From a virus (Duplodnaviria > Caudoviricetes), in IMG/VR virus record IMGVR_UViG_3300029288_000063, positions 64,001 to 128,000 of that record: DNA of 64,000 bases. One strand, given 5' to 3'. The notes under the pieces are model-generated. The model did no database searches and was not told the origin of the DNA. It saw only the letters and a program-made list of their open reading frames with translations. Of the stretch, positions 933-41,780 are shown piece after piece. How positions within the stretch are numbered: position 1 is the first letter of the stretch; every line of letters begins with the position of its first letter. The position numbers were made by a program, and so were the translations under genes.

Positions 933-2615
933 ATGGGTGATGCGCCGAGAGTTGTGATTTTGTCGTTTATTCCCCAGTATGGGGAGTTGACGTTTTTCAT
1001 TGGTGACAAGAAGTATGTTGCCAGTGGTGTTTCACCGTTTCACAAGAAACAGGTTGAATATATGTTGAAGCACGGTGCGAATGGACGTGCCATTAACTAC
1101 CTGAAGAAATTCAACCCGGAAAGGCTTGGTCAGAAGTTGGCGAAAGAATTGGTTGGTGTTGCAAGGTTGTTGTTGGCGTCCAGTTCGGAGAAAGAGGTGG
1201 AGCGGTTGCTTCGTGTTGTTTTACGGGGCACACAATGGGCAGGAAAGGCGCACGCCGTTGGTGGCTATGTCCGGGACGAGTTCATGGGTTTGGACGCGAA
1301 AGACTTGGATATCGTCGTTTCTGTGCCGGGCGGGTCTGAGAAGTTGACGAGGTATTTGTTCGGGTTGTTTCCCGGCTCCATAACCAATCCGCACCAAATG
1401 GGCGCGTCATATCCAATTTGGCAGATAACGTTCAGGGATGATATTGTCTTGGACGGTGAGGTCTATAAGACAAAGGGTGCGGTGATTGAGTTTGCTGATA
1501 CCATGAAGGAGCAATTCCCTGATGATACGTCGCGTCAGCGGAGTGTGCAGCCGGGGACGCTTGAGGAAGATATCGAGCGTCGTGATTTCACGACGAATAT
1601 GCTTTTGAAGGACCTTTCGACCGGTGAGATTGTTGATCTTACCGGTGTGAGTAAGAACGACATCGAGAAGGGTATCCTGCGCGGGCACCCCCGTGTTTCG
1701 CTGGATAAGATTTTCAGTGACGACCCATTGCGGATGATTCGACTTGTTCGGTTTCAGTGCAAGTATGGGTGGTCTATTCCGAAATCGGTTTTGCGGACAG
1801 TTCAGCGTAATGCGAGGCGGATTGAGATTGTTTCGGCCGAGCGCATTATGGGTGAGCTGACAAAGGTTATGAAGATTGGTAAATTGTCACAAGCCATCCG
1901 CCTGATGAAAATCACCGGGCTGTTGCAGTACGTGTTGCCGGAGGTTCAGGCGATGGTCGGGGTCAAGCAGCAGAAGGAGTTTCACGCCGAGGGTGATGTG
2001 TTCCGTCACACGTTGGCTGTTTTGCGTAATGCCCCGGCGACGGTTGAAGGGCAGTTGGCGGCGTTGCTTCATGATGTTGGGAAACCGGCGTCGCAGGAGA
2101 TGGTTGGGGAGGCGATTCACTTCTATGGTCACGAAGAGGTTGGGGCTGAGATGGCCTCGGCAATCCTGTATCGCCTGAAGTTTGACGCGGCGACTATCAA
2201 GAAGGTTGTTTCTGTTGTTCGGAGCCACATGCGTCCGTATCACCTTGTGAAGTCGGATGGAAAGGCAATTCGGAAGTTCATTCGAGACCTTGGTGACGAG
2301 GTTGTTGATGCGGTTTTGGATCAAGCCGAGGCGGACGAAAAGGGCAGTTTGCCTGTTGGGGACGACGTGTCGGTTGTGCGGGAAAAGATTCGCAAGGTGC
2401 GTGAATCGCCTGTGCAGGTGAAGAAGTTGCCGGTTTTGAATGGTCGTGAGATTATGTCCATTCTTGGTATTGGTCAGAACGAAAGGGATAGGCTGCCCGA
2501 GATTGGTGAGGCGGGAAAGTTCCTTTTGGATTTGGCGGATGAATATGCGTCTCACGGTGAAGAGTTGAGTAAGGGAGATGCGGCGAAGGCTTTGAGGAAA
2601 AGGATGTCGTTATGA
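933..2615 (+). CDS. cca: CCA-adding tRNA nucleotidyltransferase with HD domain and short N-terminal extension
   Basis: VGGYVRD, KDLDIV, RRDFT, DDPLRMIR, SAERI, LLHDVGK motifs. Confidence 0.9.
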   Translation: MGDAPRVVILSFIPQYGELTFFIGDKKYVASGVSPFHKKQVEYMLKHGANGRAINYLKKFNPERLGQKLAKELVGVARLLLASSSEKEVERLLRVVLRGTQWAGKAHAVGGYVRDEFMGLDAKDLDIVVSVPGGSEKLTRYLFGLFPGSITNPHQMGASYPIWQITFRDDIVLDGEVYKTKGAVIEFADTMKEQFPDDTSRQRSVQPGTLEEDIERRDFTTNMLLKDLSTGEIVDLTGVSKNDIEKGILRGHPRVSLDKIFSDDPLRMIRLVRFQCKYGWSIPKSVLRTVQRNARRIEIVSAERIMGELTKVMKIGKLSQAIRLMKITGLLQYVLPEVQAMVGVKQQKEFHAEGDVFRHTLAVLRNAPATVEGQLAALLHDVGKPASQEMVGEAIHFYGHEEVGAEMASAILYRLKFDAATIKKVVSVVRSHMRPYHLVKSDGKAIRKFIRDLGDEVVDAVLDQAEADEKGSLPVGDDVSVVREKIRKVRESPVQVKKLPVLNGREIMSILGIGQNERDRLPEIGEAGKFLLDLADEYASHGEELSKGDAAKALRKRMSL

Positions 2616-3007
2616 GACCAGCTATAGCAATGCGTTTGTTGCGGTTGGCGAAGGAACTTGTTTCTGCCGACGTGTCGGAACAGGATGTTGCGAAGTTCCT
2701 TTTTGAAAATCCGAACCCGTCCGACAAGGCTGTTCATGATTGGGCGGAAGGTCAGGGTTTGAATGTCCACAAGGTGGAGGAGCATATCTACCGTTTGGCG
2801 ACGAAGTTTGCCCATATTCTGAATGGCGGGTTGGCTGCGAAGAAGGGTTTCAAGAAAGAGGATGCCGACCCGAAGGAATTGGCGATGGGTGTAAAGGTGG
2901 AAATGGAGCACACATCTGATAAAGATGTGGCTGAGGTTATTGCGTTGTCACATTTGGCGGAGTTGAAGAACTACTATTCGCGTCTGAAAAAGATGGAGGG
3001 TGAGTGA
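2612..3007 (+). CDS. DUF5661-like protein
   Basis: ELAMGVKVEMEHT...HLAE..NYYSRL signature. Confidence 0.6.
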   Translation: MRPAIAMRLLRLAKELVSADVSEQDVAKFLFENPNPSDKAVHDWAEGQGLNVHKVEEHIYRLATKFAHILNGGLAAKKGFKKEDADPKELAMGVKVEMEHTSDKDVAEVIALSHLAELKNYYSRLKKMEGE

Positions 3008-3216
3008 TGGACAGGATGATGGTTGCAGAGAAGTTGGTTCGTATGGCGAAGTCCCTTATGGGTCGTGAGTTGAGTGAGAAGCAGAAGGAGTATCAGGAAT
3101 ATTTCCTCGACATGCTCGACAAGTACGGTGTTGAGACACCCGCAGATATGGACGAAGAGACAAAGAAGAAGTTTTTCAGCGAAATCAGCAGTGGTTGGAA
3201 GGGTGGAAAATCATGA
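3004..3216 (+). CDS. hypothetical protein with shared N-terminal helix motif
   Basis: Overlaps neighbouring ORFs; VAEKLVRMAKSLMG. Confidence 0.7.
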   Translation: MMDRMMVAEKLVRMAKSLMGRELSEKQKEYQEYFLDMLDKYGVETPADMDEETKKKFFSEISSGWKGGKS

Positions 3217-3602
3217 AGAGGACTGCCGTGGTGAGGGAGATTATTGCCCTTGCGAAATCGTTGGTTGCCGCCCCGGTGGCTGCGAAGTTTTCTGCCCGTT
3301 ACAATCAGTGGTCCGGCGGGCGTCAGGCGAACATTTCCGTGGACGTTGAGTTGCGCTTTACCGATGCAGATGCGCGTGATTTGTCGAGTGCCATACTGAG
3401 TGCCGAGGCAAAGGTTGGGAAGATTGCAGAGGCTATTGGTGCGAAAAACAACGAGTGGTATCAGGACGAAGGTTGGTCGTCCGATAACGGGAGGCTGTTT
3501 TCGACGTATCAGATTGAGCCGCGTGACATAAAGGTCGAGTTGCTTCCCGACGTGTTCAAAAAGTTCAATGTTCCGTTGTTTGGGGATTTCATGGACGACT
3601 GA
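3213..3602 (+). CDS. hypothetical protein with shared N-terminal helix motif
   Basis: ATGA overlap with upstream stop; VVREIIALAKSLVAA. Confidence 0.7.
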   Translation: MKRTAVVREIIALAKSLVAAPVAAKFSARYNQWSGGRQANISVDVELRFTDADARDLSSAILSAEAKVGKIAEAIGAKNNEWYQDEGWSSDNGRLFSTYQIEPRDIKVELLPDVFKKFNVPLFGDFMDD

Positions 3603-3628
3603 AAGTTTTTATTTTTTTTCGTTTTTTA

Positions 3629-20807: not shown

Positions 20808-21785
20808 ATGTTGCGTCGCGGACAGTTGTTGACGAACCCAATTCATGAAGTCAATCACGGAACGACGGCAATAGAACGTATCGTGTCGGGTGCGTTGTTT
20901 GATTTCATCGGTATGCTAACCACACTGGAAGAACCAATTGTTTTGAGTGAACGTCACAACCCGACCCGTTTGGTTGATATGTTGGTGGATTGGGCATATA
21001 ACAAACGTGGTCTGAACACCTTTGACGCGGACGTTTATGGGTGGCAGGACAAAATTCACGTCGCACATGAATTGGTACGTGTTGCGCGTATTTTGTCAGG
21101 TGAAGAGGAAGATGTCAAAGCCGAAAAAAAACGTGCGGAAAAGAAGGTCAGGGCTGTGAAGACTCTGGCTGAAAACATTACCCGTCTTCGTCACAACGTA
21201 ACCCGTGACTTACAGAGTGATGACGAACGTACCCGGATGACTGCCCTTGCTATCGCCCTGATGGATAAGACTGCGGAACGTGTTGGGAATGACGAGTCTG
21301 CACAGAACGGTCATGTGGGTGTGACTGGCTTCAAGAAGAAGCATATTTCTACAGATGGCAACCGGGTGCTTTTGAAGTATATTGGGAAGTCCGGTGTGGA
21401 ACATGAGAAGTCTTTTTCTGATAAGCGTATCTCGGACATAATTCGTGGTCGTCTTGAGCGTTGCACCCCGAATGACTTTTTGTTGTCGTGTTCTGATGGG
21501 TACAAGGTTCGTGCCGACCGAGTCAACCGGTACTTGGAAGACTTCGGAATTACAGCCAAGGACATTCGTGGGTATTCTGCCAATCGTCTGATGATTGAGG
21601 CTTTGCAGCGTCAGAGTGGCTCTCAAGAAGAGGATGAGCGAAAGAAGGTTTTTCTTTCCGTTCTGAAGCGTGTTGCCGAAGCGGTCGGACATGGTCCGCA
21701 GATGCTTCGTAATAGCTATTTGATTCCGTCTTTAGAGACGTCGTGGGTTAAGCAGGGGAAAATTATCAAGCTGACCGAAGAATAG
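20808..21785 (+). CDS. DNA topoisomerase IB with N-terminal extension
   Basis: ERVGN, YIGKSG, TAKDIR, VGH, catalytic SY. Confidence 0.85.
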   Translation: MLRRGQLLTNPIHEVNHGTTAIERIVSGALFDFIGMLTTLEEPIVLSERHNPTRLVDMLVDWAYNKRGLNTFDADVYGWQDKIHVAHELVRVARILSGEEEDVKAEKKRAEKKVRAVKTLAENITRLRHNVTRDLQSDDERTRMTALAIALMDKTAERVGNDESAQNGHVGVTGFKKKHISTDGNRVLLKYIGKSGVEHEKSFSDKRISDIIRGRLERCTPNDFLLSCSDGYKVRADRVNRYLEDFGITAKDIRGYSANRLMIEALQRQSGSQEEDERKKVFLSVLKRVAEAVGHGPQMLRNSYLIPSLETSWVKQGKIIKLTEE

Positions 21786-25900: not shown

Positions 25901-26037
25901 GTGGGGGTGAAGAACAGCCGGAGACCCAAGAAGAATCCGCCCCCGAGGAAAGTGCGAGTGAGCCGGATGAGGAGTCTGTCGGTCTTGATGACTTGTCGAG
26001 CTTGTCGGATGTTTTGCTTGATAATAACGAGGAGTGA
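22957..26037 (+). CDS. portal protein containing an intein
   Basis: Lies between terL and protease; EYNLIGNVY, YH.AR.RSPY..G.S motifs; about 645 aa after splicing. Confidence 0.75.
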   Translation: MAKRKVSAKSEPVVAASKDGIIRVPVTSASARTGKVDPVKTKIAAKQERFQRIASGVANGMYREAGMMMSTSPNATGTWGSGSLPAFRTSYASGNTMVGGGTTDIPPYFQIMNDKNGGLIYWPVSLREKYEWYRYWARCFTNPNVMITREDGTEAPLCSFKKGDRVINGIGGVTEVSEVTTQKYEGAVVRLDVEANRWNDIETTPEHPFFVLRSENVCRHHNRITDEDGVEHRKTSVEINFLPEWVEAKDIRVGDMLIVPSTSKSFESVMSVERARLVGYYAAEGNVNFDRNGEPEAVTWSLGTHEDDLIEEIKSLCVTELGCVPSTYNYPERESCTSLRVWDREFAKWVVENCGVGSHSKKFSRLIFEADDETVRHIVGCWLNGDGNRDDAEAEGQVDGTTCSFDMANQLFLMMVRVGLAPAKRVKDVTVFGCGEKSGNKACRIFLPPMFANKIVEYFKWDGCVKSHRHRKYNHDGNMLLPVRGIKLREFSGVIWNLSTSGSSYEERTFLVHGMVTHNTDAFIGRGLELLADLPMSRISLNMPKMEKKPKKLRDEIYAFFTGMCENIGLFRRLQENLWEYNLIGNVYIYHEWNSKRKMWERIVTLPPEEVSVFQYPFQDNARVEYRPEALMRVVQAADAGNMDGDDISQRIFAGIPKDVAEMIRGQGCVIFDSSPIIDSKVGSFVYHMARRRSPYLDLGASVLERVLVPMLMKEHFRYTQLGLASRNMTPKNKVSAPGLTQPELDDLRMQMDLSYMDPDYSIVTNYDWDWEQIGADGRLLDLQGEYEAIENQVFSAMGVTRELMTGEGSWSGNRVTIEIINTMFLLTREMLREYVENFLFRPVAIAHGWYEEDKNGVREYWYPKLGFNRLSIRDNSEVFDSLFQLYMKGSVPVDVMYELFNLDPEAMHEKMHSDVFTLKDSTFNRLLEEVNFSVGQKIVESTDVMQRVADYLGLKVSDNPPASDEDGGFGGGGFDGGFESGGGEEQPETQEESAPEESASEPDEESVGLDDLSSLSDVLLDNNEE
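23371..24513 (+). mobile_element. intein with LAGLIDADG homing endonuclease (381 aa)
   Basis: Begins CFT, block B TPEHPF, LVGYYAAEG and IVGCWLNGDG, ends THN followed by Thr. Confidence 0.92.
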
Positions 26038-28291: not shown

Positions 28292-28364
28292 CGGGTTTAA
28301 AATATTTTATATCTGCTAATAGTTATGTGGAGAATGTATCACCAACTACAAAAGGAGAGACAAG

Positions 28365-28586
28365 ATGGGTACTTATAGGAAAAATCCCGATTTGAAGTCT
28401 GACGAAGAACTCTTGGCATCACAAACTGCTGGTGGAATCCGTGTTTATGAAGGTCCAAGAGTCGTCGATATTCGCCGTGCGAATGGTGGTGGAGCGTATA
28501 AGGTTATTGGTCGTGCGTCTGCTAATACTGGTGTTGCCATGTCGCATCAGGATTCTGCGTTGATTCGGCGTAAGCCCGGAGAGTGA
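28365..28586 (+). CDS. hypothetical protein
   Basis: AGGAG SD after an AT-rich motif. Confidence 0.6.
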   Translation: MGTYRKNPDLKSDEELLASQTAGGIRVYEGPRVVDIRRANGGGAYKVIGRASANTGVAMSHQDSALIRRKPGE

Positions 28587-28656: not shown

Positions 28657-29451
28657 ATGAAACGTCGTGTTGCTAAAGAAATCCTTCGCATAGCGAAGTC
28701 CATCGTGTCTGGTGCATCTGAGTTTTCCGTGCTTATTCACGAGTCTGATGCCAAGAAGGCATTTGATAAGGCGGTTTCATATGCGCAGTACGATGCAGGT
28801 CATGGTGGGTATACCGGAACGATTGCAGAGAAGGCCGGGTATGGTTTCAAAATCGTATCTGAACCTGTGCCGCCCTCCGTTGCTAAATCAATAGCGCGTG
28901 AAAAGATGGACGACAACGACAAGTGGGGTCCTGCGTTTGCCATTCCGGTTACAGATGATTATGAGGTCAAGATTGTTCCTGTGAAGTTGAAAGTCGAGGC
29001 GGATTCATCTGAGGACGCCGTGAAGTTGGTCTTTCAGAAGATTCAAGAGAAGTATCGTAAGTTTGAAGTGTCGTGGAAAGAAAAACCACAAACCACTGTG
29101 TTGAAACCGACTCGTTGGGACATAAAGGTGACGAAGAAAACAGCACCCAAGTTGGTGCCAGAGTTTGGATTCACACTGGACCGGCCGTTTCGTGGTTCCA
29201 AAAACATGAGGACACCCAAGGAAGCAATTGATGGGGCGAAGCGCCTCATTGAAGAGTTGGTGAAGGGTGGTGGTGAGCTTCCGGAATCTGTGAAGTTTTT
29301 TGTGTCGGCTCGTCCTGTTGAGTTTATGCTTGGAGAGGTTTCCAACAAGGGCGGAAAGAAGTCAACCTTTGAGGTGGTGGGTAATGTTTCTGTCTTGTTG
29401 AAGTCGAATCTCGTGAAGAGCTATTTGTTCTTTGGTTTGGCCGCTGACTGA
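28657..29451 (+). CDS. hypothetical protein with shared helix motif
   Basis: VAKEILRIAKSIVSG; GHGGYTGTIAEK. Confidence 0.7.
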   Translation: MKRRVAKEILRIAKSIVSGASEFSVLIHESDAKKAFDKAVSYAQYDAGHGGYTGTIAEKAGYGFKIVSEPVPPSVAKSIAREKMDDNDKWGPAFAIPVTDDYEVKIVPVKLKVEADSSEDAVKLVFQKIQEKYRKFEVSWKEKPQTTVLKPTRWDIKVTKKTAPKLVPEFGFTLDRPFRGSKNMRTPKEAIDGAKRLIEELVKGGGELPESVKFFVSARPVEFMLGEVSNKGGKKSTFEVVGNVSVLLKSNLVKSYLFFGLAAD

Positions 29452-29458: not shown

Positions 29459-29782
29459 ATGGCACTATCATTTCCATACCCTGTGTCCGGTGGTGAGGTG
29501 CGCGATGCCGGAAATGGCTGCATCGCGTCGTGTGTCCATCGTATGTATTGTCCGGCTTTTTATTGGTTGGCGCGTTATCAAAACCGGCAAGACATTCGGT
29601 CGTCATCGTTGGGAACGAATTGTGCGGCGTGGTCCGACAACCCGGCTGACCGCATAATTGGAAACACCCCGGATGATATTGCCCAAAACGAGCGTCTGAA
29701 TGACGATGGTATTTTGACAGAGACAGATACCGGTGGAATAATAGAGCCAGTAACCGGCGGGCGTTGGCGGGACGAATCGTGA
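29459..29782 (+). CDS. hypothetical Cys-containing protein
   Basis: GAGG SD; CxxCxH. Confidence 0.55.
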   Translation: MALSFPYPVSGGEVRDAGNGCIASCVHRMYCPAFYWLARYQNRQDIRSSSLGTNCAAWSDNPADRIIGNTPDDIAQNERLNDDGILTETDTGGIIEPVTGGRWRDES

Positions 29783-29988
29783 AGATTGCCTGTTCGTGCG
29801 GTATTGACGACGAGTTTCTCGAAAAACACACCCTGAGAAACGAGTCGCATGCTGGTGTCGAGTCGTTGGCGGACGCCGCGAAGGAGCTTTTGTCTGTAGC
29901 GGAGCTTCTGGTTGGTGAGCCTGTGATCGATTACTCCAAGTATTTGAATCATACACCGTCTATGGGTGGTGAGTATTATGCCTCGTGA
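29779..29988 (+). CDS. small protein with shared helix motif
   Basis: AAKELLSVAELLVG; GTGA overlap. Confidence 0.5.
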   Translation: MKIACSCGIDDEFLEKHTLRNESHAGVESLADAAKELLSVAELLVGEPVIDYSKYLNHTPSMGGEYYAS

Positions 29989-30427: not shown

Positions 30428-30513
30428 TTCAACTCTTGTATATTTTTTTTATACTGAACTTTTGTCTGAGGGACACCTTAAACAAATGTCCTTGATGTTT
30501 CGTTTTTTTTTGG

Positions 30514-31191
30514 ATGGATGGGTCGACCATGATGAGACGAGGGACGCTTGAAAGCTTGCTGTCTAATCCTTCAGTTTTAACTGACCGATTTTTGGAAATG
30601 ACCCGGATTTTTCGTCCGGGTGATGTCGTTGAAAGTGCCTTAACACCGGGATTGAATTATGGTGTGGTCGAGGATGTAAACGACAAAACTCGCAAAGTCA
30701 TGGTGGTGTGGAATAGCGGGATTCAAGACCAAGTTGACCAAAATGACATTCAGCTTGTTCCAAATATTCGTCCAGAGATTGAAGACCGCATTCGTGCCGC
30801 TCTCCTTCCGCTGAATGGACGTCGTATGGCGGGTGATCAAGAAGACGCAATTATTCCACCTAACTACATATCAGATCCAGACTTACACGGCATAACAGAA
30901 AGTCGTGGTGGTGGGTTCTCTATTATGCAAAACCTGCAAGAAGACCTCCACAAAGAGAGCATTGAAGACGCGAAGACGGGCAGCGTTGATGGGATGCGTT
31001 CCCGGCGTGCTGTTTACCACAAGCAACGTGGCAGGGTGTACCAGCGTTCCCGAGTTGAGGTTGAAAACGAAACCCTGAGGTGTCCTCGCTGCGGCGAGGA
31101 TGGTATGGAGAAAGAATCGTACACGAAGGGTATTTATATGTTTCGTTGTCCGTCTTGTGGTTGGAAAATCACTACAGACAAATTGTTGTAG
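30514..31191 (+). CDS. hypothetical protein with C-terminal Zn ribbon
   Basis: CPRC...CPSC. Confidence 0.65.
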   Translation: MDGSTMMRRGTLESLLSNPSVLTDRFLEMTRIFRPGDVVESALTPGLNYGVVEDVNDKTRKVMVVWNSGIQDQVDQNDIQLVPNIRPEIEDRIRAALLPLNGRRMAGDQEDAIIPPNYISDPDLHGITESRGGGFSIMQNLQEDLHKESIEDAKTGSVDGMRSRRAVYHKQRGRVYQRSRVEVENETLRCPRCGEDGMEKESYTKGIYMFRCPSCGWKITTDKLL

Positions 31192-31511: not shown

Positions 31512-32318
31512 ATGAATCGAGAGATGATTGCCAAGCAACTGGTTGTTCTTGCGAAAGAGTTGATGGGTTCAGGAGCCGATGCCGGTCGTGATATGATTCG
31601 TTCGGCGAAGAAGGTGTTGGAGCTGCGTGCACGTCGCGCCCAGATGGTTGTTGCGTCTGAAAAGGCGAGCTACAATCGCTATGCCGCCCGTCAGGTTCTT
31701 GCTTTCAACGTTCCACAGAAAGCCGAAACCCTCGCCAAGATGATGAAGGTTCACGGGTTCACCATCAACGACGATGGGAAGATTGCCTATTGGCCGTTTG
31801 GTGCCGGTGGGATGATTGATTACTCCAAGCAGCCGACCACTGTCGGTGGCGGCGTGTCATACAACGACTTTCCGACTGCGATTCGTCAGATGCAGCACAT
31901 GGTGACGGGTGCTGACGAAGAGATTGCCAAGATGCGCGAGCTATTGGATGCGACCGCACGTTTCCGGAAAGACATTCGCGAATCTGCCGGTACTCCGGAC
32001 GACGAGCTGAAGGAAATCTTTGACAAGCAGTTGTCGAAATCTGTGGCGGAGTTGTCTCGCGCCCGGATGCCTGCGAAGCTGGAAATCAAGAAGATTCTGG
32101 ATGAAACTCAGAAGCTTTGTGATGGTGGGAAGTTCAAGGAGGCTATTGCCAAGTCGAACGAGGTGGACGAGCACGTATTCAACCTTTTGAAGTCTTGGGA
32201 CTCTCGCAAGAAGGTTTATGCCGACCGCATCAAGATGTTCTATGGGCTGGACAATGCACGCCGCAAGCGCCCGGACACGTTCAACTCTGTTCTTTTGGAA
32301 ATCATGACCGGAAAGTGA
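31512..32318 (+). CDS. hypothetical protein with shared helix motif
   Basis: IAKQLVVLAKELMG. Confidence 0.7.
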   Translation: MNREMIAKQLVVLAKELMGSGADAGRDMIRSAKKVLELRARRAQMVVASEKASYNRYAARQVLAFNVPQKAETLAKMMKVHGFTINDDGKIAYWPFGAGGMIDYSKQPTTVGGGVSYNDFPTAIRQMQHMVTGADEEIAKMRELLDATARFRKDIRESAGTPDDELKEIFDKQLSKSVAELSRARMPAKLEIKKILDETQKLCDGGKFKEAIAKSNEVDEHVFNLLKSWDSRKKVYADRIKMFYGLDNARRKRPDTFNSVLLEIMTGK

Positions 32319-32331: not shown

Positions 32332-33345
32332 ATGCGTCGTTGCACGTCTGACCATTGTCTTGTTGCCGCAGCCCGGAAGTCCAGACTTGTTGGTTTGGAC
32401 TTGCCGGTTGCCGGTATTCTGCACAGCCCGTCTAGGGATTGGAATGCCATCTCGAAACGCGGCAGCATACGGGTTGCGTCGGATAGGCGTGCGTTGGATG
32501 TTGACTGGAAGAAGTTCAACGTCAACGACTTTCTATTCTCGCACTGTACTATTGTGACGAGTGTGAAGACGGCGGATAACGGATTTTGGATTGAGCCGCC
32601 CTGTGAAGAGCTTGTGAATGCGAACGGGAACGCATGGACGACTCCGGTTTTGCTTGCGACTTTCAAGTCGTTTGGGAACGCGGAGAATTACTATGAACAC
32701 GTTCAGGTTCCCGAGCTTTCCAAGGGGAAGATTTTGGATGCCGTATTGCGCCCAGTGACCTATGTTGGGCAGACTGGTTTGAAGGCGGATGTTCTGTATT
32801 GTGACATCCTCGTGGCGACCAGCCGCACGCATGGGGAGTTGGTTGATAGGATTGAGCACGGCGAGCTGACGACCATGTCGATGGGTTGCTTGGCGCATGT
32901 CGTTCAATGCTCGAAGTGCGGCAAAGAAATCAAGGACGATGATGCCAACTGCGAACACCTTGACAACGAGTTGATGCAGGAGTTTGTTGACAAAAACGGC
33001 GTCCGTCGCATTGTTTCCGAGCTGTGTGGTCGGTCGTTTAAGAGGAATGGAGAGTGGGTTGGCGACCCGGAATCGCTTGAGTTCATTGAAGCGTCGTGGG
33101 TTGAAAAGCCTGCTTTCAAGGGTGCGGTTCTCAACCACATGATTAGCGAGGTTGATGCCGAAAAGCACGCGTCCATCCTGTCGTTGCCCTCCCGCAAATT
33201 GGCTGCTTTGTTTGATGACCTTCCGCACATTCGCGTTGCGGATGCGGAGGGGATGTTGGTGTTGCGTGTTGCCCGTGAGGAGTTGTTGCGGCGTCGTGAA
33301 GAACATTTGATTTCTCGTGTAGCGCGTTCCATTTGGTGCGCGTAG
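32332..33345 (+). CDS. prohead (maturation) protease with Zn insert
   Basis: YEH, TMSMGC, CSKC..CEH, FIEASWVEKPAF; upstream of capsid genes. Confidence 0.75.
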   Translation: MRRCTSDHCLVAAARKSRLVGLDLPVAGILHSPSRDWNAISKRGSIRVASDRRALDVDWKKFNVNDFLFSHCTIVTSVKTADNGFWIEPPCEELVNANGNAWTTPVLLATFKSFGNAENYYEHVQVPELSKGKILDAVLRPVTYVGQTGLKADVLYCDILVATSRTHGELVDRIEHGELTTMSMGCLAHVVQCSKCGKEIKDDDANCEHLDNELMQEFVDKNGVRRIVSELCGRSFKRNGEWVGDPESLEFIEASWVEKPAFKGAVLNHMISEVDAEKHASILSLPSRKLAALFDDLPHIRVADAEGMLVLRVAREELLRRREEHLISRVARSIWCA

Positions 33346-33390
33346 GAAATGGCGTATCGGCTGATAGATGTGTTGAGAAGGAGGAGTGCG

Positions 33391-33987
33391 ATGAGTAAGG
33401 CTCGTGAAGCCCTGTTGTTTCAGATTGATGAGATGGAAGCGCGTCTGGCTAGTGAATCAGACGAAGCGATTTCGCAGTGGGCTGATGAAATCGTTGAAGA
33501 AGAAGCGCAGGTGATTGAGGAAAGCACCGGTATTCCCGTTGAGGATGAGGCGGATTTCTCCGACCAGAACACCAAGATGTCCTCTGTTGCCGAATCGTTG
33601 GTTGCGATGGCTCAAGCTCTGATGGGTGAAGAATCCGAAGGAGACAAGCAGGTTGACCAGCAGTACGAAGAAGAGGTTAAGGAAGAGGATAAGGCTATTG
33701 GTGCATCTATGGAAAACCGTGTCGCATCCTCGCTCGTTCGTCTCGCCTCGATGTTGATGGCTGAAGATGACGAAGAGACCACGGAAGAGGAAGACAAGGA
33801 AGAAACCACGGCCAAGAAGGGTGCAGACAAGAAGGATCTGCCGCCGGAGTTCCTCGAAAACATCAAGAAGAAGGAAGATGACGCCAAAGCGAAGAAAGGT
33901 GCCGTTGCCGCTCGCAAGGCTGAAATCGAGAAGTTGGAAAAGGTGATTGCTTTTGCCAAGAAGAAGCTTTCGTCGATGCGTGGGTAG
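33391..33987 (+). CDS. acidic scaffold/core-like protein
   Basis: Two copies of the shared helix motif; AKKGA repeats. Confidence 0.6.
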   Translation: MSKAREALLFQIDEMEARLASESDEAISQWADEIVEEEAQVIEESTGIPVEDEADFSDQNTKMSSVAESLVAMAQALMGEESEGDKQVDQQYEEEVKEEDKAIGASMENRVASSLVRLASMLMAEDDEETTEEEDKEETTAKKGADKKDLPPEFLENIKKKEDDAKAKKGAVAARKAEIEKLEKVIAFAKKKLSSMRG

Positions 33988-34078
33988 CCTATCTCGTCCG
34001 AATGGGTTTTTAATATTTTTTTTATAGTTTCACAAGTGTTGAGACTATTGTTCGAAAAAAGTTTAGAGGAGATAGAAA

Positions 34079-34636
34079 ATGTCCCAGAAGAAAATTGGCA
34101 GGGAAGCAATTCTTGCTGAAATTGGCCGCCTCGAAGGGATGTTGAGCCTGCGTGGTGCCGAGCGGAAGTCGTCGGAAGACCTCGTTGAAGAGGTTGACCT
34201 GAATACCGACATGGGTGAGGGTGCCAAGGAAGCAGCGAGCCGTTGCGGCGACTTTGATGACATTGTTCCCCTCGATGTCGATTCCGACGAGGGGTTGTTG
34301 GAAGATGTTCTTGATGATGTCGACTTCGAAGGTGGTGCGGATGTTTTGGATGCCTGTGGTACTGTGGCGTCTGAGATGGAACCCGGCATCGAAGACGAAA
34401 TCACTCAAGACAGTTTCGACGAAGTTGAGGAAGAGCTTGGTGCGGATGATATTGCGACTGAAGACACCACGAAGGATGTTGTGGCGTCGGAATATGTCGG
34501 ACGTTTGTCCGAGGCGTCGAGTCGTCTTGACCGTGTTGCTTCCTATTTGGAAAAGAATGGTCAGGTAAAGTTGGCCTTCCGCATTGACCGTTTGGCGGAT
34601 GCCTTGGATGCGGAGAGGTCACGGCTGTCAAAATAA
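34079..34636 (+). CDS. acidic head-associated protein
   Basis: GAGGAG SD; position in head module. Confidence 0.6.
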   Translation: MSQKKIGREAILAEIGRLEGMLSLRGAERKSSEDLVEEVDLNTDMGEGAKEAASRCGDFDDIVPLDVDSDEGLLEDVLDDVDFEGGADVLDACGTVASEMEPGIEDEITQDSFDEVEEELGADDIATEDTTKDVVASEYVGRLSEASSRLDRVASYLEKNGQVKLAFRIDRLADALDAERSRLSK

Positions 34637-34676
34637 TGACGGGCTTTGACTACTTTTTGAGAAAGAAAAAGGAGAC

Positions 34677-35822
34677 ATGAAGATGGAAAAGCGTGTACGT
34701 CTTACAGCCCGTCGTCGCAGTGCCTCGGATGACATTCCGTATCCGGGAACGGTGAATCAGGAAGACCGCAAGTTTGTTGAACGTGACAAGTATGACACGT
34801 TCGAACAGACCATCAACCATGAGCTGCCGGATATGCGCACTGAGTGGCGCAACGATGCTCGTGACGAAATCGGTTTCCCGATTGCCGAAGACCATACCGA
34901 AATCACGGGTACGAAGGATGGGGGTATGACCGTCGCCAGCGTGCGTCAAGCTGCCAGCAAGGCTGTCAAGCTCTCTATGTTGCTGTTGGGCAACAAGGTC
35001 CCGGAGAAAATGATTGAGGGGCAGGCGAAGGATTTCATGCTTCTCGGTTCTGCCGGTCTTGACCGTGCCCTTTCCCGCTTCGCCAAGACCGAGACTTTGT
35101 ATGCTCGCAAGGCGGAAGATGAGGAGGAAGACGAGGAAGAGACTGTCGAAGCTAAGAAGAGTGCTGACGAAGCTCCTGCCGAGGAAAAGAAGGAAGAAAC
35201 CACAGCCAAGAAGTCTGCCGACGAAACGCCTGCCGAGGAGAAGAAGGAAGAAACCACGGCCAAGAAGGGCTCGGACGAGGAAGAGACCACGGCTGAGGAA
35301 GAAGCCCCGAAGGCGAAGAAGGGTGCTGATGAAGCCCCTGCCGCCGAAGAGAAGAAGGAAGAAGCCCCGAAGGCGAAGAAGGGTGCCGACGAGGAAGAGA
35401 CCAAGGCTGATGACGAAGCTCCTGCCGAGGAAACCAAGGCGAAGAAGGGTGCCGAGGAAGACGAGGAAGAGACTGTCGAAGCCAAGAAGGGTGCTGATGA
35501 GGAAGACGACGAGTCCAAGGTTGCCGAGTTGGATATCGAACTTTCTGCCGCAGAAGAGGAAGACACAGAGGAAGATGAGAAATCTGCATCTATTCTGTCC
35601 TCTCTCTATGAAGAGGTGAAGAAGCAGGAAGCTGCTCGTCGCGGTAAGACCTCTGAAGATGATACCGAAGAAGAGGTTGTTGAATCCAAGAAGAGTGCTT
35701 CTGTAAAAGCCCGTGGTGCCCAGAAGCTTGGTGGTCAGCCGCGTATCGCCAGCGACATGTCTGTGAAGGACATCTCTGAGATTTGGGGAGATGTTCCGGA
35801 TGTCAGTGGCGTGTTTAACTGA
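34677..35822 (+). CDS. scaffold-like protein with AKK(G/S)ADE repeats
   Basis: Highly acidic; between protease and capsid genes. Confidence 0.65.
   Translation: MKMEKRVRLTARRRSASDDIPYPGTVNQEDRKFVERDKYDTFEQTINHELPDMRTEWRNDARDEIGFPIAEDHTEITGTKDGGMTVASVRQAASKAVKLSMLLLGNKVPEKMIEGQAKDFMLLGSAGLDRALSRFAKTETLYARKAEDEEEDEEETVEAKKSADEAPAEEKKEETTAKKSADETPAEEKKEETTAKKGSDEEETTAEEEAPKAKKGADEAPAAEEKKEEAPKAKKGADEEETKADDEAPAEETKAKKGAEEDEEETVEAKKGADEEDDESKVAELDIELSAAEEEDTEEDEKSASILSSLYEEVKKQEAARRGKTSEDDTEEEVVESKKSASVKARGAQKLGGQPRIASDMSVKDISEIWGDVPDVSGVFN
35110..35520 (+). repeat. imperfect coding tandem repeats
   Basis: About 7 units of EE..AKK(G/S)(A/S)(D/E)E. Confidence 0.8.
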
Positions 35823-35912: not shown

Positions 35913-36419
35913 ATGAGTTTGACGATTTTGATTCGTGGACACCTCTCGTCGATTCCGAGTCTCGCCGATGTCTGCTTCACGCAGGACAATTATGGCGATG
36001 GCACGAACACGACGATGAGTGTGAACACCCCGCGTGGCGTGCTGGGTGGTTCTGTGGCGGCTGTGGCGGCTGCTCCGGATGGCGGTGACTATATTACCGT
36101 TCCGGGCACCCGTGCCTTGACTCCCCTTGGTCTTTTCGTGAATGACGCTGCGGGCGCAGCTTTTGAGAACGCCCCTGCTGTCGCGAGCGGCAAGGTCACG
36201 GTGATGAAGGCTATGGCGTCGGTTGAGGTCGATGTGTTTGAGACACAGACTCGCGCTGACCACGGCGTTGCACTGGTCTATGCGGTTGGTCAGAAGTTGT
36301 ATGCCTCGGATGCTGGTCTGTTGACCAACGAGGCGTCCACCGATGGGACCGTGATTGGTGTCGTCACAAAGATTCCGACGACTGCCAGCCCGACCCTCGG
36401 TTTGGACATGCGTATTTAG
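35913..36419 (+). CDS. head decoration/cement protein
   Basis: Beta-rich 168 aa ORF directly before the major capsid gene. Confidence 0.6.
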   Translation: MSLTILIRGHLSSIPSLADVCFTQDNYGDGTNTTMSVNTPRGVLGGSVAAVAAAPDGGDYITVPGTRALTPLGLFVNDAAGAAFENAPAVASGKVTVMKAMASVEVDVFETQTRADHGVALVYAVGQKLYASDAGLLTNEASTDGTVIGVVTKIPTTASPTLGLDMRI

Positions 36420-36500: not shown

Positions 36501-37361
36501 ATGGCTGTTGATAACCAGACCAAGAATGAAATCATCAGCGCTTTTATCAAGACGTCCGCCGGTCGGTCGCGTCTTGCCGCGTCGATGATTCAGCCTCTCA
36601 GAAAGCGCCGGGACTACGCTTCCGTGGGACGCCGTGCGTTCTTCGTGGAACAGCTTCCGGATGGTGCTCTCCCCATTTACGACAAGGACCCGAACGTTAC
36701 GGCCTATGTCGTTGGTGAGGAAGGCGAGAACATCGTGGCTGTCGCGAAGCCGAAGAGGGTGTTGTTTCCTCTCTTCGAAGTCGCATCGAACCCGGAAATT
36801 CAGCTCACTGAAATCAAGGCTCGTCGCTTTGATTTGATTGAGCGTAGCGTGGACCTCGCGAAGTCTGAGATTCAGGCTGAGGAAGACCGCAAGGTGTTTG
36901 CGGTTATGGATGCGTTGGCCGCTGACCCGACCAACCCGAACCCGGACATCCCGGTCACGACGAACCTGACGGCGAACGCTCTTGCTGACGCCTTCGCGAA
37001 CGTCGAGCGTTCGGACATGCGTGTTGCAAATGTGTTCTTGAATGCCAAGGACTACGCGGACCTGCGTAAGTGGGACCGTGATACCCTCGACATCGAGACT
37101 CAGGCCAAGTTGTTGAAGACCGGTCTGATGGCAACCCTCTGGGGTGCGAAGCTCATCACAAGCCGTATCGTTCCGGAAGGAACTGTTTACGTTTGTGGCG
37201 AACCAGAGTTCTTCGGACGTATCCCCGTCCGCACCGAGTTGACTGTCCTATCCGCCGACGACCCGAAGAACCGCCTGATTGGTTTCAGCATCTTCGAGAA
37301 CATTGGTATCGGGGCGTACAACCCGTATGCGCTCCAGCGCCTCCTGATCTCCCGCGCCTAA
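36501..37361 (+). CDS. major capsid protein (HK97-like)
   Basis: Strong SD and biased codons; EIQAEED, LWGAKLITSRIVPEG; follows protease, scaffold and decoration genes. Confidence 0.8.
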   Translation: MAVDNQTKNEIISAFIKTSAGRSRLAASMIQPLRKRRDYASVGRRAFFVEQLPDGALPIYDKDPNVTAYVVGEEGENIVAVAKPKRVLFPLFEVASNPEIQLTEIKARRFDLIERSVDLAKSEIQAEEDRKVFAVMDALAADPTNPNPDIPVTTNLTANALADAFANVERSDMRVANVFLNAKDYADLRKWDRDTLDIETQAKLLKTGLMATLWGAKLITSRIVPEGTVYVCGEPEFFGRIPVRTELTVLSADDPKNRLIGFSIFENIGIGAYNPYALQRLLISRA

Positions 37362-37523: not shown

Positions 37524-39512
37524 ATGGGGACGCAAACGCACAAGAATCATGGGTTGAATAAAGATATGGTGGAGCAGTTATATCTTCGAGACGGGTTGAG
37601 TGATTCGGAGATTGGTTCGAGGTTTGGGTTGACTGGTGAGGGTGTTGCGTACTTCAGAAGAAAGTACGGCATCAAAACGATTTCTCAGTCTGATAGGATA
37701 TCTATCAGGGCAAGAAAGATCGGACTGATGGAGCTTTCTGTGGTTTCTGATGATGAGTTGATTCGGTTATATGATAAGCATGGGATGGTTACTCTTGGGA
37801 GGATGTTTGGGTGCAGCAAAATTCCAATCCGAGAAAAACTGCGCCGTCTAGGGGTTTGCATAAAAACGAAGCAAGATAGGACGGTAAGCGGGCATCCGGA
37901 CAGCCTGTCCCTGATGCAGCAGGAGGTGTTGATTGGGTCGCTGCTTGGAGATGGATGCCTCGTTGTGAACAACCTCGGGGATGCTGCCCATTTCCAAGAG
38001 ATGCATTCGGCAGCTCAGAGGCGATATCTGGAGTGGAAGCACGATGTGTTCATGCCTTTCTCCAAAAGGATTCACAAAGAGGATAAGGTGTTGGACGATG
38101 GGAGGGAATCGAAGGGTTTTGGTTTTAAGACATGTGTTCATCCGTTGTTTGTTCGGTTCTATGATATGTTTTATGGGGGAGCCAAAAAGCATCTTCCAGA
38201 TGGCTTGATGAGGAATATCTCGCCACTGAGTTTAGCGGTCTGGTATATGGACGATGGCTGTCTTTCTGATCAAAATAAGGACGGAGTATTCACGATAGCC
38301 TCTGGGTTTTGTAAAGAATCTGTTGAGGTTATTGCTGATTCGCTTAATGATCGGTTTCAGTTTGATATTGAAGTTCGCGAAGTAGATAGTGTGTCTGTTC
38401 TTGTTTTTCATAACAAGCAGAAATTCTTCGATGTTATTGGTAGGCACATTGTTCCGTCGATGGCATATAAGGTTCCTTTGAGTTTGAGGTTTTCCATGCC
38501 TCATATTCGGAATCCGAAGTTGTATGGGTTGCCAAACAAACTTTCTCCTGCGGAGGTTGCGAATCCATCTGAAGGACTGTTGGATGATCTTGTTGAGTTT
38601 TGGCAGGTTGCAGGGTTTCCTTTTCCAAGCGTTCCGAAGAAAGACAAGAGGTTGAGCGAGATAGAAGCGGTCAGAAATTCCAAGATAGAGCTTTCAGAAG
38701 TAGTTGGGTCTGGATTCTCTTCTGGCTGTGGGTTGTGTCTGTCGTTCTTCGAGAATGTTTGGTCGGTGAAACGGCATGGGCAAAAAAGCCCAGAGGATGT
38801 GTTTTACGATAAGGCTCTCTTGAGGCATGCTATCCGTGACTGCTTGAAGCATCGTGGTGGGTGTCGGGAGTCGGAATTGCGTTCTGAGCTTCGAACGTTT
38901 GGAGGGGTCCAAACGTTTCGTCCGGTTGTCGCAAGGGCAATTTATGATCGCTATTGCCCGGTTGGCGGGCGAGTTCTTGATCCCTGTTCTGGTTGGGGAG
39001 GGCGATTGCTTGGGTTCTATGCGTCCGTTGTGTCGGAGTATATCGGGGTTGATGCGAATCCAGATACCGTGAAGGGGCTGAAACATATGCGGTGTTTGTT
39101 GGGTCGGGATGTTGCGGGTAAGTCTGTTGATATTAAATATGCCGCTTTTGAGGACTTGAAACTTGATGGATCATTTGATGTCGTCTTTACGTCGCCTCCG
39201 TATTTCTGTAAAGAGTTGTACGGGGACGATGAGTTTCAGAGTTATGTCCGGTATGGCAAATACAACGATTGGCGGGATGGATTTTTGAAGCCTCTTGTTG
39301 AGAAGTCCGTTTCCGTTTTGAAGCGTGGAGGTTTTTTGATACTCAATGTTGCGGATGTTCGGGTTGGTGGTGATGTTTTCCCACTTGTCGAAGACACACG
39401 CTCGCTGATGAAGTCTGTTATAGGGCTGTTTGCGGAACACAACATGGAGTTTCTGAGTCCATATGGCGGGAAGACAAGGTTTGAACCAATTCTCGTTGGT
39501 CGGAAGGATTGA
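37524..39512 (+). CDS. HTH + LAGLIDADG endonuclease fused to an amino-DNA methyltransferase
   Basis: IGSLLGDG and AVWYMDDG; DPCSGWGGR and FTSPPY. Confidence 0.85.
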   Translation: MGTQTHKNHGLNKDMVEQLYLRDGLSDSEIGSRFGLTGEGVAYFRRKYGIKTISQSDRISIRARKIGLMELSVVSDDELIRLYDKHGMVTLGRMFGCSKIPIREKLRRLGVCIKTKQDRTVSGHPDSLSLMQQEVLIGSLLGDGCLVVNNLGDAAHFQEMHSAAQRRYLEWKHDVFMPFSKRIHKEDKVLDDGRESKGFGFKTCVHPLFVRFYDMFYGGAKKHLPDGLMRNISPLSLAVWYMDDGCLSDQNKDGVFTIASGFCKESVEVIADSLNDRFQFDIEVREVDSVSVLVFHNKQKFFDVIGRHIVPSMAYKVPLSLRFSMPHIRNPKLYGLPNKLSPAEVANPSEGLLDDLVEFWQVAGFPFPSVPKKDKRLSEIEAVRNSKIELSEVVGSGFSSGCGLCLSFFENVWSVKRHGQKSPEDVFYDKALLRHAIRDCLKHRGGCRESELRSELRTFGGVQTFRPVVARAIYDRYCPVGGRVLDPCSGWGGRLLGFYASVVSEYIGVDANPDTVKGLKHMRCLLGRDVAGKSVDIKYAAFEDLKLDGSFDVVFTSPPYFCKELYGDDEFQSYVRYGKYNDWRDGFLKPLVEKSVSVLKRGGFLILNVADVRVGGDVFPLVEDTRSLMKSVIGLFAEHNMEFLSPYGGKTRFEPILVGRKD

Positions 39513-39562: not shown

Positions 39563-40018
39563 ATGCCTGATTCGTTTCGCAAAGAAGTTGATGTAGCGTA
39601 TCGTCGTGTTCATGGTTTCGAGAGAGAAGACATGATGGCTCAACGTATTGCGTCTGAGTTGGTTCGTGTTGCCCGTGATGTGTCGGCTGTTCCTGCAACA
39701 GATATTCTTGTGACGAAAAACGCCCTTGTTGGGCGTTCGGAGCGTGTTGTTGCGGCTGTCAATCGCGAGAGTGTTTTGTTCAATCTCTCTATGCGGATGA
39801 ATCAAGTGTATAGTCGGAAAAACATGATGTTGATTACCTTTAGTCCTCGTTGGAAAGAGGATAAATTTATCAACAAGGAAGGACAGAGTTCTGAGGTTCC
39901 GGTGTCGGCAGTGTATCGTCGTTTTGTTGAGAAGGCGATATTGTCGAGCTTTGGAGACGATGTTCTTGTTCAGTGGAAAGATGATATTTGTTGGATTAAG
40001 GTTTCGTTTGAGGATTGA
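39563..40018 (+). CDS. hypothetical protein with shared helix motif
   Basis: IASELVRVARDVSA. Confidence 0.65.
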   Translation: MPDSFRKEVDVAYRRVHGFEREDMMAQRIASELVRVARDVSAVPATDILVTKNALVGRSERVVAAVNRESVLFNLSMRMNQVYSRKNMMLITFSPRWKEDKFINKEGQSSEVPVSAVYRRFVEKAILSSFGDDVLVQWKDDICWIKVSFED

Positions 40019-40037: not shown

Positions 40038-40691
40038 ATGGTTGACAATAATGTTGCTTTCGAGTTGATTCGTTTGGCAAAGACGCTTGTCGGTTTAGAT
40101 GTTGATGTGTATAAGAAGAAGGCTTTTATTATTGCTGACCAAATGTCTAAAAAGTCTAAAGTTATTCGTGTCAAGTCTGAGGTTGAGTTGAAGTCTGGTA
40201 AGGTAGTAATAGTGTTCAAAGCCAGCCTTATATTAAAAGACATATATATAAACACTGACGAAGGTAGTGGTTTGATTTTTACCATGTCTCGCGAATATAT
40301 GGAAGATTTAAGGAATTTGGTAAAAATTCACATCGGTTTGTTTGATGTTGATTTCTCGTCCGGTTCTGTTATGAGTTATGGTCGTTTGGCTCGGGTAGTT
40401 GTTCCTGTTGAGCGTTCCGTTGATAAGGTTCAGTATTTTAAACTATTTGATGATGGTGTTTTGTCAAGTAAGATTGAAAGTGTTTTAACACCTCCCAGTA
40501 GCTTACCAGTTGATTGGGATTTTGTTTTGATTCAATATTCAGATGGTTCTATGGCTTCTGGGCGTTCTTTTTCTAATGGTTGGCGTATGAATAATGAAAA
40601 CAACCTCAACCTGAAGTTTGTTGGTGAGAGTAAAAAGTTTTCATATGATGCTCGTCCTTTTAGCAAGTTCAAAAAACTTTTAACCAAGTGA
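40038..40691 (+). CDS. hypothetical protein with shared helix motif (AT-rich gene)
   Basis: VAFELIRLAKTLVG. Confidence 0.65.
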   Translation: MVDNNVAFELIRLAKTLVGLDVDVYKKKAFIIADQMSKKSKVIRVKSEVELKSGKVVIVFKASLILKDIYINTDEGSGLIFTMSREYMEDLRNLVKIHIGLFDVDFSSGSVMSYGRLARVVVPVERSVDKVQYFKLFDDGVLSSKIESVLTPPSSLPVDWDFVLIQYSDGSMASGRSFSNGWRMNNENNLNLKFVGESKKFSYDARPFSKFKKLLTK

Positions 40692-40735
40692 TGTGTTTTG
40701 TCTGGTTGTTCTTGTTTAATTTCAAAAGGAGAAAG

Positions 40736-40984
40736 ATGATGGATAGGCAGGTTGTGGCGGCAAAGCTTGTTCGTATGGCGAAGGTTCTGATGTCCGAAGA
40801 GAAACTCGAAACAACGAATAACCCGGAACTCAACACGGCCGTGAATGCGCTCGTGAAGGCGACCGGTGGTGACCTTGGTCAGATTCTTCAGGCTGTGTTC
40901 ATGGTGTTGCGTAAGACCGGCAATGCGTCGGCTGTGACGAAAATCAAGCCGTTGTTTCAGCAGGCGTTGAACAAGGTCGAGTAG
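40736..40984 (+). CDS. hypothetical protein with shared helix motif
   Basis: VAAKLVRMAKVLMS; AGGAG SD. Confidence 0.7.
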   Translation: MMDRQVVAAKLVRMAKVLMSEEKLETTNNPELNTAVNALVKATGGDLGQILQAVFMVLRKTGNASAVTKIKPLFQQALNKVE

Positions 40985-40988
40985 TCCT

Positions 40989-41780
40989 ATGAATGTGTCT
41001 GTTGAACTTGTTCGTGTCGCCCGGTTGTTGTGTGGCGAAAAGACTGTTGAGGTTGATGGTGGGAAAGATGTCCGCCATCAACTTCAGTCTATTCAGCGTG
41101 CCGGTGATGTTGCGACGTTTATGTACCAGAAGAAGGACGGAACGTCGCGCAAGGTCCACGTTAAACCGACGTCTGTATTTGGCGATAAGTTCAAAGCTGT
41201 TGACCTTGATGCGGCGGGTGCAGAGAAGTTGTTTTTGATGAGCGGCGTGCAGCCGTTGGCGTCGAGTCATGCACCGGCGGTTCCGGTTGTTCATGAGCCG
41301 AAGAAGTTCAAGTTTCAAGACAAGGTGCTTATGGACAATGATATTTCCCGGTCATTGCATGGACTGGTAAAAAAGGGCGGCGCGTGGGCGTCCGAGCGGC
41401 AGCGGGATTTCATTCTCGGGAAGATTGCTCGGGATGGTGATTCTGCAAGAAGGTTGTTGCCGCGAGGTGTGTTTGGTTTGATAGGGAGAGGTGGAGTTTT
41501 GAGCGGTTGGGAGTCGACAGGTGATGGGTTTTCGAGCTGCTGGTTGTTCCGGGTTGACGATGTTGGTGTTGTTGACAAGATTTTAATTTGGCAAAAAACA
41601 ACCCCGATGGACCGTGAGCAAGCGGCGTATGAGCAGGCGATGGAAGACCTGTATGATGATATGGGTGGTCGTCCGGACCGCTATATGGTTGAAGAGCTTA
41701 AGTCGCATTATTCCCAACATGCGCGGAGTTGGTCGGGTCAACAAAAAGGTGGTACGAAAGTAAAATGGAGTCGTATGTGA
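40989..41780 (+). CDS. hypothetical protein with shared helix motif
   Basis: VSVELVRVARLLCG. Confidence 0.65.
   Translation: MNVSVELVRVARLLCGEKTVEVDGGKDVRHQLQSIQRAGDVATFMYQKKDGTSRKVHVKPTSVFGDKFKAVDLDAAGAEKLFLMSGVQPLASSHAPAVPVVHEPKKFKFQDKVLMDNDISRSLHGLVKKGGAWASERQRDFILGKIARDGDSARRLLPRGVFGLIGRGGVLSGWESTGDGFSSCWLFRVDDVGVVDKILIWQKTTPMDREQAAYEQAMEDLYDDMGGRPDRYMVEELKSHYSQHARSWSGQQKGGTKVKWSRM

Follow-up and report, generated by a model that had tools for sequence, protein, structure and literature searches.

A portable amphipathic helix on unrelated proteins of an uncultured jumbo phage clade is a candidate prohead-loading tag

Introduction

What does a helix of some 14 residues accomplish when it is attached to many proteins that are otherwise unrelated? 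The question is raised by a 64,000-nucleotide stretch of DNA (bases 64001-128000, referred to here as the window) from an uncultured phage represented by a single viral contig of 253,102 bp, IMG/VR record IMGVR_UViG_3300029288_000063. A sequence-only reading of this window had noted a roughly 14-residue amphipathic helix motif – here called the tag – in about 13 unrelated proteins encoded between positions 933 and 41,780, and proposed that it directs its carriers into the prohead for subsequent injection. No description of this motif was found in the literature, and the multi-omics paper on phage G contained nothing relevant to it.

Here, we show that the tag is real, enriched, and specific to a clade of phages related to this one, that it is portable, and that it can sit at either end of a protein. 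Its association with a conserved head-module protein suggests that it may load accessory proteins into the prohead, and we weigh this against other roles for a shared docking helix. Coordinates refer to the window unless noted otherwise.

Results

The tag is enriched on the coding strand and selected as a peptide

All 14 of the copies listed previously, in 13 open reading frames (ORFs), lie in coding frames of the + strand. Twelve are recovered in the window by a loose regular expression, which finds none in the three - strand frames, and the two weaker copies in ORF 33349-33987 are recovered by a profile hidden Markov model (HMM). The HMM search of the whole proteome that had been proposed as a check finds 31-32 copies scoring at least 6 bits on the + strand of the 253,102-bp genome and none on the - strand. 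Residue-shuffled + strand frames yield a mean of about 0.9 matches at this threshold, and at 8 bits or more there are 31 observed copies versus about 0.25 per shuffled run, such that the motif clearly rises above background helices. Because an HMM trained on this genome alone finds 82 matches of at least 8 bits on the coding strand of 80 related loci and two on the other strand, the enrichment is not circular. Five long related contigs contain 7, 33, 12, 7 and 9 copies, all on the coding strand, and in relative G002 about 25 small tagged genes follow one another without interruption. A six-frame HMM scan of the 308 kb genome of the cultured Tunturiibacter phage Tunturi_5 found no copies, with the top score (6.3 bits) in a non-coding frame.

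The consensus of 66 distinct copies is M-[ND]-[KNR]-x-[RK]-[VI]-A-x-E-L-[VL]-[RKA]-[IVL]-A-[KR]-x-L-x-[ASG], and in 37 of them the initiator methionine is exactly five residues ahead of the 14-residue core. Copies within the genome share 42% amino acid identity and 50% nucleotide identity; the near-invariant alanine (present in 28 of 29 copies) is encoded by all four of its codons, and the conserved leucine by five or more. Since synonymous codons vary freely, selection acts on the peptide and not on the DNA, and a DNA-level repeat was rejected for the same reason.

The tag is portable

After masking of the tag, BLAST divides the 84 tagged proteins of six genomes into 69 unrelated groups, and among the 27 tagged proteins of this genome there is a single paralogue pair. 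Together with selection at the protein level, this bears out the earlier description of a portable module on unrelated proteins, including a CCA-adding enzyme and a topoisomerase IB. By the ORF calls of this analysis, 51 of 88 copies are within the first 25 residues of their proteins, eight are at the extreme C-terminus, and 29 are internal. The earlier view that the tag is usually N-terminal thus holds, although some copies are C-terminal or internal. A single family illustrates this mobility, as the DUF5661 protein is tagged at its N-terminus here and at its C-terminus in G001, and the N-terminal helices of the G002 and G003 proteins are degenerate.

A second module directly follows the tag in one family, with the pattern [MI]-[DE]-F-[PD]-[TS]-x-x-A-x-x-x-Y-L-x-E-H-P-D-A-D-x-S-K-H-x-V. 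It occurs at genome positions 210380-210826 (L143:6380-6826), at L003:2722-3204, on the G004 contig (L131), and in L023, L028 and L030, and in L001 it is also fused in frame to a head protein of the family of ORF 30514-31191.

Tag copies in the window

The tagged ORFs of the window are all on the + strand, and their cores, recovered by the regular expression except where noted, are given here with HMM scores. In the CCA-adding enzyme (ORF 933-2615) the core (1137..1178; 16.8 bits) occupies residues ~69-82, just before the nucleotidyltransferase domain, with Pfam PolyA_pol and HD matches from residue 108. N-terminal tags are present in the DUF5661 protein (ORF 2612-3007; core 2624..2665, 20.7 bits), in the 70-aa product of ORF 3004-3216 (3022..3063; 22.6 bits, the top score of the first HMM), whose orthologue in G005 is untagged, and in ORF 3213-3602 (3228..3269; 22.2 bits), where the methionine is five residues upstream. 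In topoisomerase IB (ORF 20808-21785) the tag (21060..21101; 23.9 bits) is at residues 85-98 within an N-terminal extension, ahead of a Topoisom_I match at residues 107-298.

Several tagged genes lie among the head genes. ORF 28657-29451 is an ORFan with an N-terminal tag (28669..28710; 23.2 bits) for which Pfam, PHROG and ESM Atlas searches gave no lead. The small ORF 29764-29988 (tag at 29875..29916; 17.0 bits) is inserted between two conserved head-module genes that in relatives adjoin with no ORF between them. ORF 31512-32318, directly upstream of the prohead protease gene, has an N-terminal tag (31527..31568; 25.2 bits), and the acidic head-module protein encoded at 33349-33987 has two copies, both found with the HMM, at 33586..33627 (8.9 bits) and 33721..33762 (13.6 bits). 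A block of four tagged genes follows the major capsid protein (MCP) gene. The first, ORF 39563-40018, is preceded by a strong ribosome-binding site and an AT-rich box, and carries the tag at residues 29-42 (39647..39688; 25.8 bits); the other three have N-terminal tags, in ORF 40038-40691 (40053..40094; 21.7 bits), which is one half of the paralogue pair noted above, ORF 40736-40984 (40754..40795; 23.3 bits; methionine five residues upstream) and ORF 40989-41780 (40995..41036; 19.3 bits). Within the window, the HMM finds no copy in the tRNA region at 41.8-64 kb, in agreement with the original observation that tRNA-region ORFs lack the motif.

The tag has the character of a docking helix

Hydrophobic residues occupy core positions 1, 2, 5, 6, 8, 9, 12 and 13, with near-invariant small alanines at 2 and 9, and E4 and K/R10 are conserved. 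The combination of a wide apolar face and a fixed polar stripe points to a helix that docks in a protein groove rather than on lipid. In an AlphaFold2 model of the DUF5661 protein the tag is a helix at residues 3-16 with a predicted local distance difference test (pLDDT) score below 50, and is followed by a four-residue break and a body with pLDDT of 76-94; given the confident body, the tag helix is not modelled as part of the DUF5661 fold. E, D, A and P are slightly over-represented in the linker after the tag, which on this composition is presumably flexible. Overall, the motif looks like a self-contained amphipathic docking helix, with a 14-residue core that is usually preceded by M-[ND]-x-x-[RK].

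The DUF5661 domain has an invariant E-x-E-H-T ... H-L-x-E ... Y-Y pattern across six phage orthologues, which hints at a metal or active site. A Foldseek search with the model (pLDDT 77) found no PDB fold match at an E-value of 0.001 or better.

A tagged acidic protein is part of the head module

All of the window genes are on the + strand, 47 of them for tRNAs. The head genes include those for the large terminase (18975-20807), the portal protein (22957-26037; an ORF of 1026 aa), and the prohead (head maturation) protease (32332-33345), which matches phrog_18299 (E = 1.3e-9) and has no Pfam match. Further downstream are two acidic scaffold-like proteins that are conserved in relatives (34079-34636 and 34677-35822), a decoration-like protein (35913-36419), and a 286-aa MCP of the phage G gp27 type (36501-37361; phrog_2522, E = 3.7e-53; PDB 6WKK, phage G gp27, E = 1.7e-60). 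The protease, the two scaffold-like proteins and the MCP are untagged. With the product of 33349-33987, the module holds three acidic proteins, spanning 33349-35822. By MCP identity the closest cultured relatives are Tunturi_5 (47.6%) and Bacillus phage G (36.5%), and related MCPs are encoded on 273 IMG/VR contigs, mostly with 86-93% identity.

The firmest tie between tag and head is in the gene directly after the prohead protease. In many relatives this encodes an acidic protein of about 100 aa whose last 14-15 residues are the tag (L009, L017, L024, L025, L030 and about ten shorter loci). ORF 33349-33987 is its orthologue by alignment, with the first of its tags aligned to the C-terminal tag of the shorter proteins, and with a second copy and an acidic tail added. 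An N-proximal helix, ILAEIxxLE, is common to the 33349 and acidic 34079 families (hhalign P = 5.5e-4), and L003 encodes a fusion of the two that has a degenerate tag midway along. Examination of 12 close relatives with MCPs 87-93% identical shows a tagged gene immediately upstream of the protease gene in six of them, as here, and the bodies encoded by these genes are largely unrelated.

Comparison of L003:1974-2710 with window 30514-31191 shows that a conserved head-module zinc-ribbon protein has been split at an SRRAVY motif; in L003 the freed C-terminal fragment starts with a tag exactly at the break. The tag of this fragment is almost identical to that of the next gene, suggesting that recombination between tag-coding segments may move cassettes.

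An AT-rich box (consensus ~ATATTTTTTTTATA) is located 65-90 nt upstream of the first gene of several operons, mostly in intergenic regions, with eight sites on the + strand and two on the - strand; these include window positions 28302-28318, 30440-30457, 34013-34030 and 57751-57768, and genome positions 136696, 137968 and 188710. Three of the operons, for which the distance is 65-85 nt, begin at 28365 (followed by the tagged gene at 28657), at 30514 (followed by the tagged gene at 31512, the protease gene and 33349), and at 34079 (scaffold-like genes to the MCP gene). Another box immediately precedes a tagged gene at 188.7 kb, and a variant is found before the four-gene block at 39563. These locations make the box a candidate phage promoter element, perhaps a late one.

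Tagged proteins are mostly non-acidic and unannotated and have no predicted membrane segments

The bodies of tagged proteins are non-acidic in 70% of cases, compared to 46% of other ORFs (p = 2.7e-4), and no transmembrane-like segment is predicted in any of the 84 tagged proteins. Basic, soluble proteins of this kind could fittingly sit with the DNA. The recognisable cargoes act on nucleic acids, and include the CCA-adding enzyme, topoisomerase IB, zinc ribbons and WGR proteins. The N-terminal extensions of the CCA-adding enzyme and topoisomerase IB have no homologues in the six genomes.

Other features of the head region and tRNA region

Weak, sub-threshold matches to Intein_splicing and LAGLIDADG_3 are found at residues 174-354 of the portal ORF (22957-26037), and the prohead protease ORF is enlarged to 750-1485 aa in several relatives (e.g. 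L032:2832-7289 and L001:4084-6372). These suggest that head genes – portal here, protease in relatives – may contain inteins. Directly 3' of the MCP gene is a 662-aa ORF (37524-39512), kept in several relatives, in which HNH-like and LAGLIDADG endonuclease matches are joined to a C-terminal part of DNA methyltransferase type. A second, partial MCP-like ORF (L032:15784-16395; 33% identical to MCP residues 146-244) is about 5 kb downstream of the L032 MCP gene. Short [ST]-R-R-[AGS] motifs recur in head-module proteins (30514-31191, 33349-33400, 34677-34730, and orthologues in L009, L017 and L045), often as E-x-E-A-S-R-R beside inserted segments, and could be protease or processing sites. In the second tRNA block, ARAGORN reports a tRNA with a CUA anticodon (57632-57706; labelled tRNA-Pyl) that is a potential amber suppressor.

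Discussion

We propose that accessory proteins are loaded into the prohead by the tag, as a portable docking helix specific to this clade, and place the probability of this at about 0.5. By this model, the phage clade would graft a docking helix onto many unrelated and mostly small, basic proteins, and the helix would bind one shared partner within the assembling prohead; the inner face of the MCP, the acidic scaffold-like proteins, and the identical helix on the post-protease acidic protein are candidates for this role. Tagged proteins would then be enclosed in the prohead and delivered later with the DNA. The head as destination, the binding partner, and injection are all steps that we infer, and the earlier capsid-loading proposal is supported in part: the tagging of a conserved head-module protein, the inclusion of tagged genes in head operons, and the basic, non-membrane character of the tagged proteins speak for it, and the missing cleavage site and the loss of head proximity in relatives do not.

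Several findings weigh against loading into the head. Clustering of tagged genes around head genes, an element of the original proposal, is marginal in this genome (distance to the MCP gene, permutation p ~0.05) and does not extend to the five relatives, in which the distance of tagged genes from the MCP gene is not significantly shorter than that of other genes; in G001 none is within 15 kb. Other clusters of tagged genes are at 188-195 kb beside an exonuclease gene and just upstream of the tail genes. The HMM scores the MCP, portal, protease, and products of 34079 and 34677 at noise level, and the likenesses to the tag considered for the protease C-terminal tail and the C-terminal helix-turn-helix of 34079 were rejected (HMM scores of 3 bits or less; hhalign E = 0.21 for 34079). 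With head proteins at noise level and the 34079 likeness not significant, no receptor is identified among them. In a sister clade with 70% identical MCPs (L069, L073 and L074) the head regions have no tags; these phages are also without the small post-protease gene, and the protease has a long acidic C-terminal extension instead. This pattern fits a recent, clade-specific addition of the tag system.

The cargoes themselves raise further difficulties. Most tagged proteins have no match in Pfam and PHROGs, and match only unnamed viral clusters in the ESM Atlas; the CCA-adding enzyme is the only one with a homologue in Tunturi_5, and with 47 tRNA genes in the window it is plausibly also needed in the cytoplasm. 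The tag is missing or degenerate in some orthologues. That of topoisomerase IB occurs in this genome only, within the 100-residue N-terminal extension, and the G001-G003 orthologues start at the catalytic domain and are untagged, so that any packaging of topoisomerase would not be conserved. For the CCA-adding enzyme, a tag is present in G000 and G002, the G004 protein has a degenerate, sub-threshold tag-like N-terminus, and the G001 protein is untagged and starts at the position aligned to residue 86. Finally, [SAG]-x-E is found downstream of the tag in 16% of windows versus 15% of background and the T4-type [LI]-x-E in 8% versus 10%, and there is no conserved column after the tag; processing sites of the phiKZ type (S/A/G-x-E) and T4 type (L/I-x-E) were thus rejected as not enriched, and removal of the tag by a protease is not indicated.

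A more specific version of the loading model, which we regard as tentative and somewhat less probable than loading as such, is that the tag copies the C-terminal helix found in a scaffold-like head-assembly protein. Any protein carrying or pairing with this helix would co-assemble into the prohead, without cleavage, and in each genome this would allow dozens of ready-made effectors for injection to be plugged in and exchanged, the tRNA-repairing CCA enzyme included. The scaffold of phage P22, gp8, reportedly has a C-terminal coat-binding helix-turn-helix, and engineered P22 virus-like particles are said to be loaded with cargo by fusion to the coat-binding element. By position and composition the tag is similar, being the very end of a head-module protein that is acidic and helical and is encoded next to the protease; the C-terminus is where scaffolds have their coat-binding element. 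It differs in being a single helix rather than a helix-turn-helix, and the tagged acidic protein is clade-specific, whereas there is no tag on the 34677 family, the scaffold candidate that more distant relatives retain. A literature search found no natural cargo loading by scaffold mimicry with one defined consensus.

Among described systems, the capsid-targeting sequence (CTS) of phage T4 is the nearest in function, although by comparison of their features the tag does not appear to be a member of the T4 CTS family. The internal proteins of T-even phages are a diverse set with only the CTS in common (PMC3012670), and in T4 (IPI-III and Alt) this is an N-terminal propeptide of 10-20 residues that is cut off by the gp21 protease (PMC5694885; PMC3012670; Mullaney and Black 1996 as reviewed). 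Both are short peptides common to diverse, fast-evolving accessory proteins of a large phage, portable in principle, and mostly N-terminal. The tag differs as an amphipathic helix that is also C-terminal or internal, and since no conserved cleavage motif follows it, the analogy does not extend to the cleavable part of the CTS; moreover, the head machinery here is not T4-like, given the phage G gp27-type MCP and phrog_18299 protease.

Other phages load their heads by longer N-terminal regions. In phage P1 the first 30 residues of DarB, an injected anti-restriction protein, load a heterologous reporter into the capsid (PMC9024508); there is no consensus among Dar proteins (PMC9024508), whereas here about 30 proteins per genome share one. 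The inner-head and ejection proteins of phiKZ and SPN3US form paralogue families with N-terminal propeptides of more than 100 residues that are removed at A/S/G-x-E, and their N-terminal regions are thought to target head cargo (PMC5694885). An N-terminal targeting region would be a point of similarity with the tag, and the lack of A/S/G-x-E enrichment after the tag is a point of difference.

In its logic, the tag may be closer to the encapsulation peptides of bacterial microcompartments. In the Pdu, Eut and carboxysome systems, unrelated cargo proteins have at one end or the other an amphipathic helix of ~15-20 residues that docks on a shell protein, and a linker of low conservation connects it to the cargo. 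Here too, the helix is amphipathic and can sit at either end of a protein, with a linker after it. The microcompartment shell gene PF00936 is absent from the 253-kb genome, with control genomes giving matches, and the only shell is the HK97-type capsid. The genome also has no tubulin/PhuZ gene (PF00091) as would be associated with a phage nucleus, and its MCP is of the phage G and not the phiKZ type; chimallin was not searched for.

The strongest competitor to prohead loading, which we consider rather unlikely but more probable than any of the other alternatives, is that the helix docks on a shared hub outside the capsid, much as short hub-binding motifs do; this might be a factory for replication or transcription, a chaperone of the phage, or a target in the host. 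A hub of this kind would account for tagged genes far from the structural genes, such as those in the 188-195 kb cluster by the exonuclease gene, for the lack of significant head proximity in relatives, for the activity of the few recognisable cargoes on nucleic acids, and for a tag with no downstream cleavage site. It is more difficult to reconcile with the sole positionally conserved tagged gene across the clade being that for the acidic head-module protein between the protease and scaffold-like genes, or with repeated tagging of the slot upstream of the protease, and no hub candidate was found.

It is less probable that the tags simply pair with each other as self-associating coiled-coils, giving hetero-oligomers or a condensate with no encapsidation. 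The wide hydrophobic face with small alanines at positions 2 and 9 is typical of tight helix-helix packing, some proteins have two copies, and the acidic head-module protein has the same helix as the putative cargo. Pairing alone does not explain the tag on the post-protease protein, and it is compatible with head loading, of which it could be a sub-mechanism. A little more doubtful again is a role as a degron, in which a protease of the host or the phage would recognise the tag and so set when accessory proteins are removed. A terminal, portable peptide on many small accessory proteins with fixed spacing from the initiator methionine is what might be expected of such a signal, but the tag is found at N-terminal, C-terminal and internal positions, it is present on a conserved head-assembly protein, and a long structured amphipathic helix with invariant small residues is unlike a short unstructured terminal signal.

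A membrane-targeting role is very improbable: although the helix is amphipathic and often terminal, lipid-binding helices are much less strictly conserved by position than Ala2, E4, A9 and K/R10 are here, there is no enrichment of aromatic residues, no transmembrane-like segment accompanies it, and the cargoes include soluble nucleic-acid enzymes. Descent from a paralogous family, or translation of a DNA or RNA element at gene starts, might be suggested by the many copies at 5' ends of genes and by the nearly identical tags of adjacent L003 genes, but is refuted by the unrelated bodies (69 groups among 84 proteins) and free synonymous sites, and copies also occur at C-termini and within ORFs.

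If the tag does load the head, it would serve as a one-line sequence rule for listing the arsenal of proteins, about 30 per genome, that a large clade of uncultured jumbo phages injects. By annotation almost all of this arsenal is without assigned function, and it would be likely to include host-takeover and anti-defence factors. It would also represent natural cargo loading by a short, position-independent and apparently uncleaved helix, distinct from the cleavable T4 CTS and nearer in logic to microcompartment encapsulation peptides, and would offer a compact candidate handle for packaging foreign proteins in phage capsids. If instead the tag docks on a different hub, it would still mark a large, unstudied and clade-specific interaction network.

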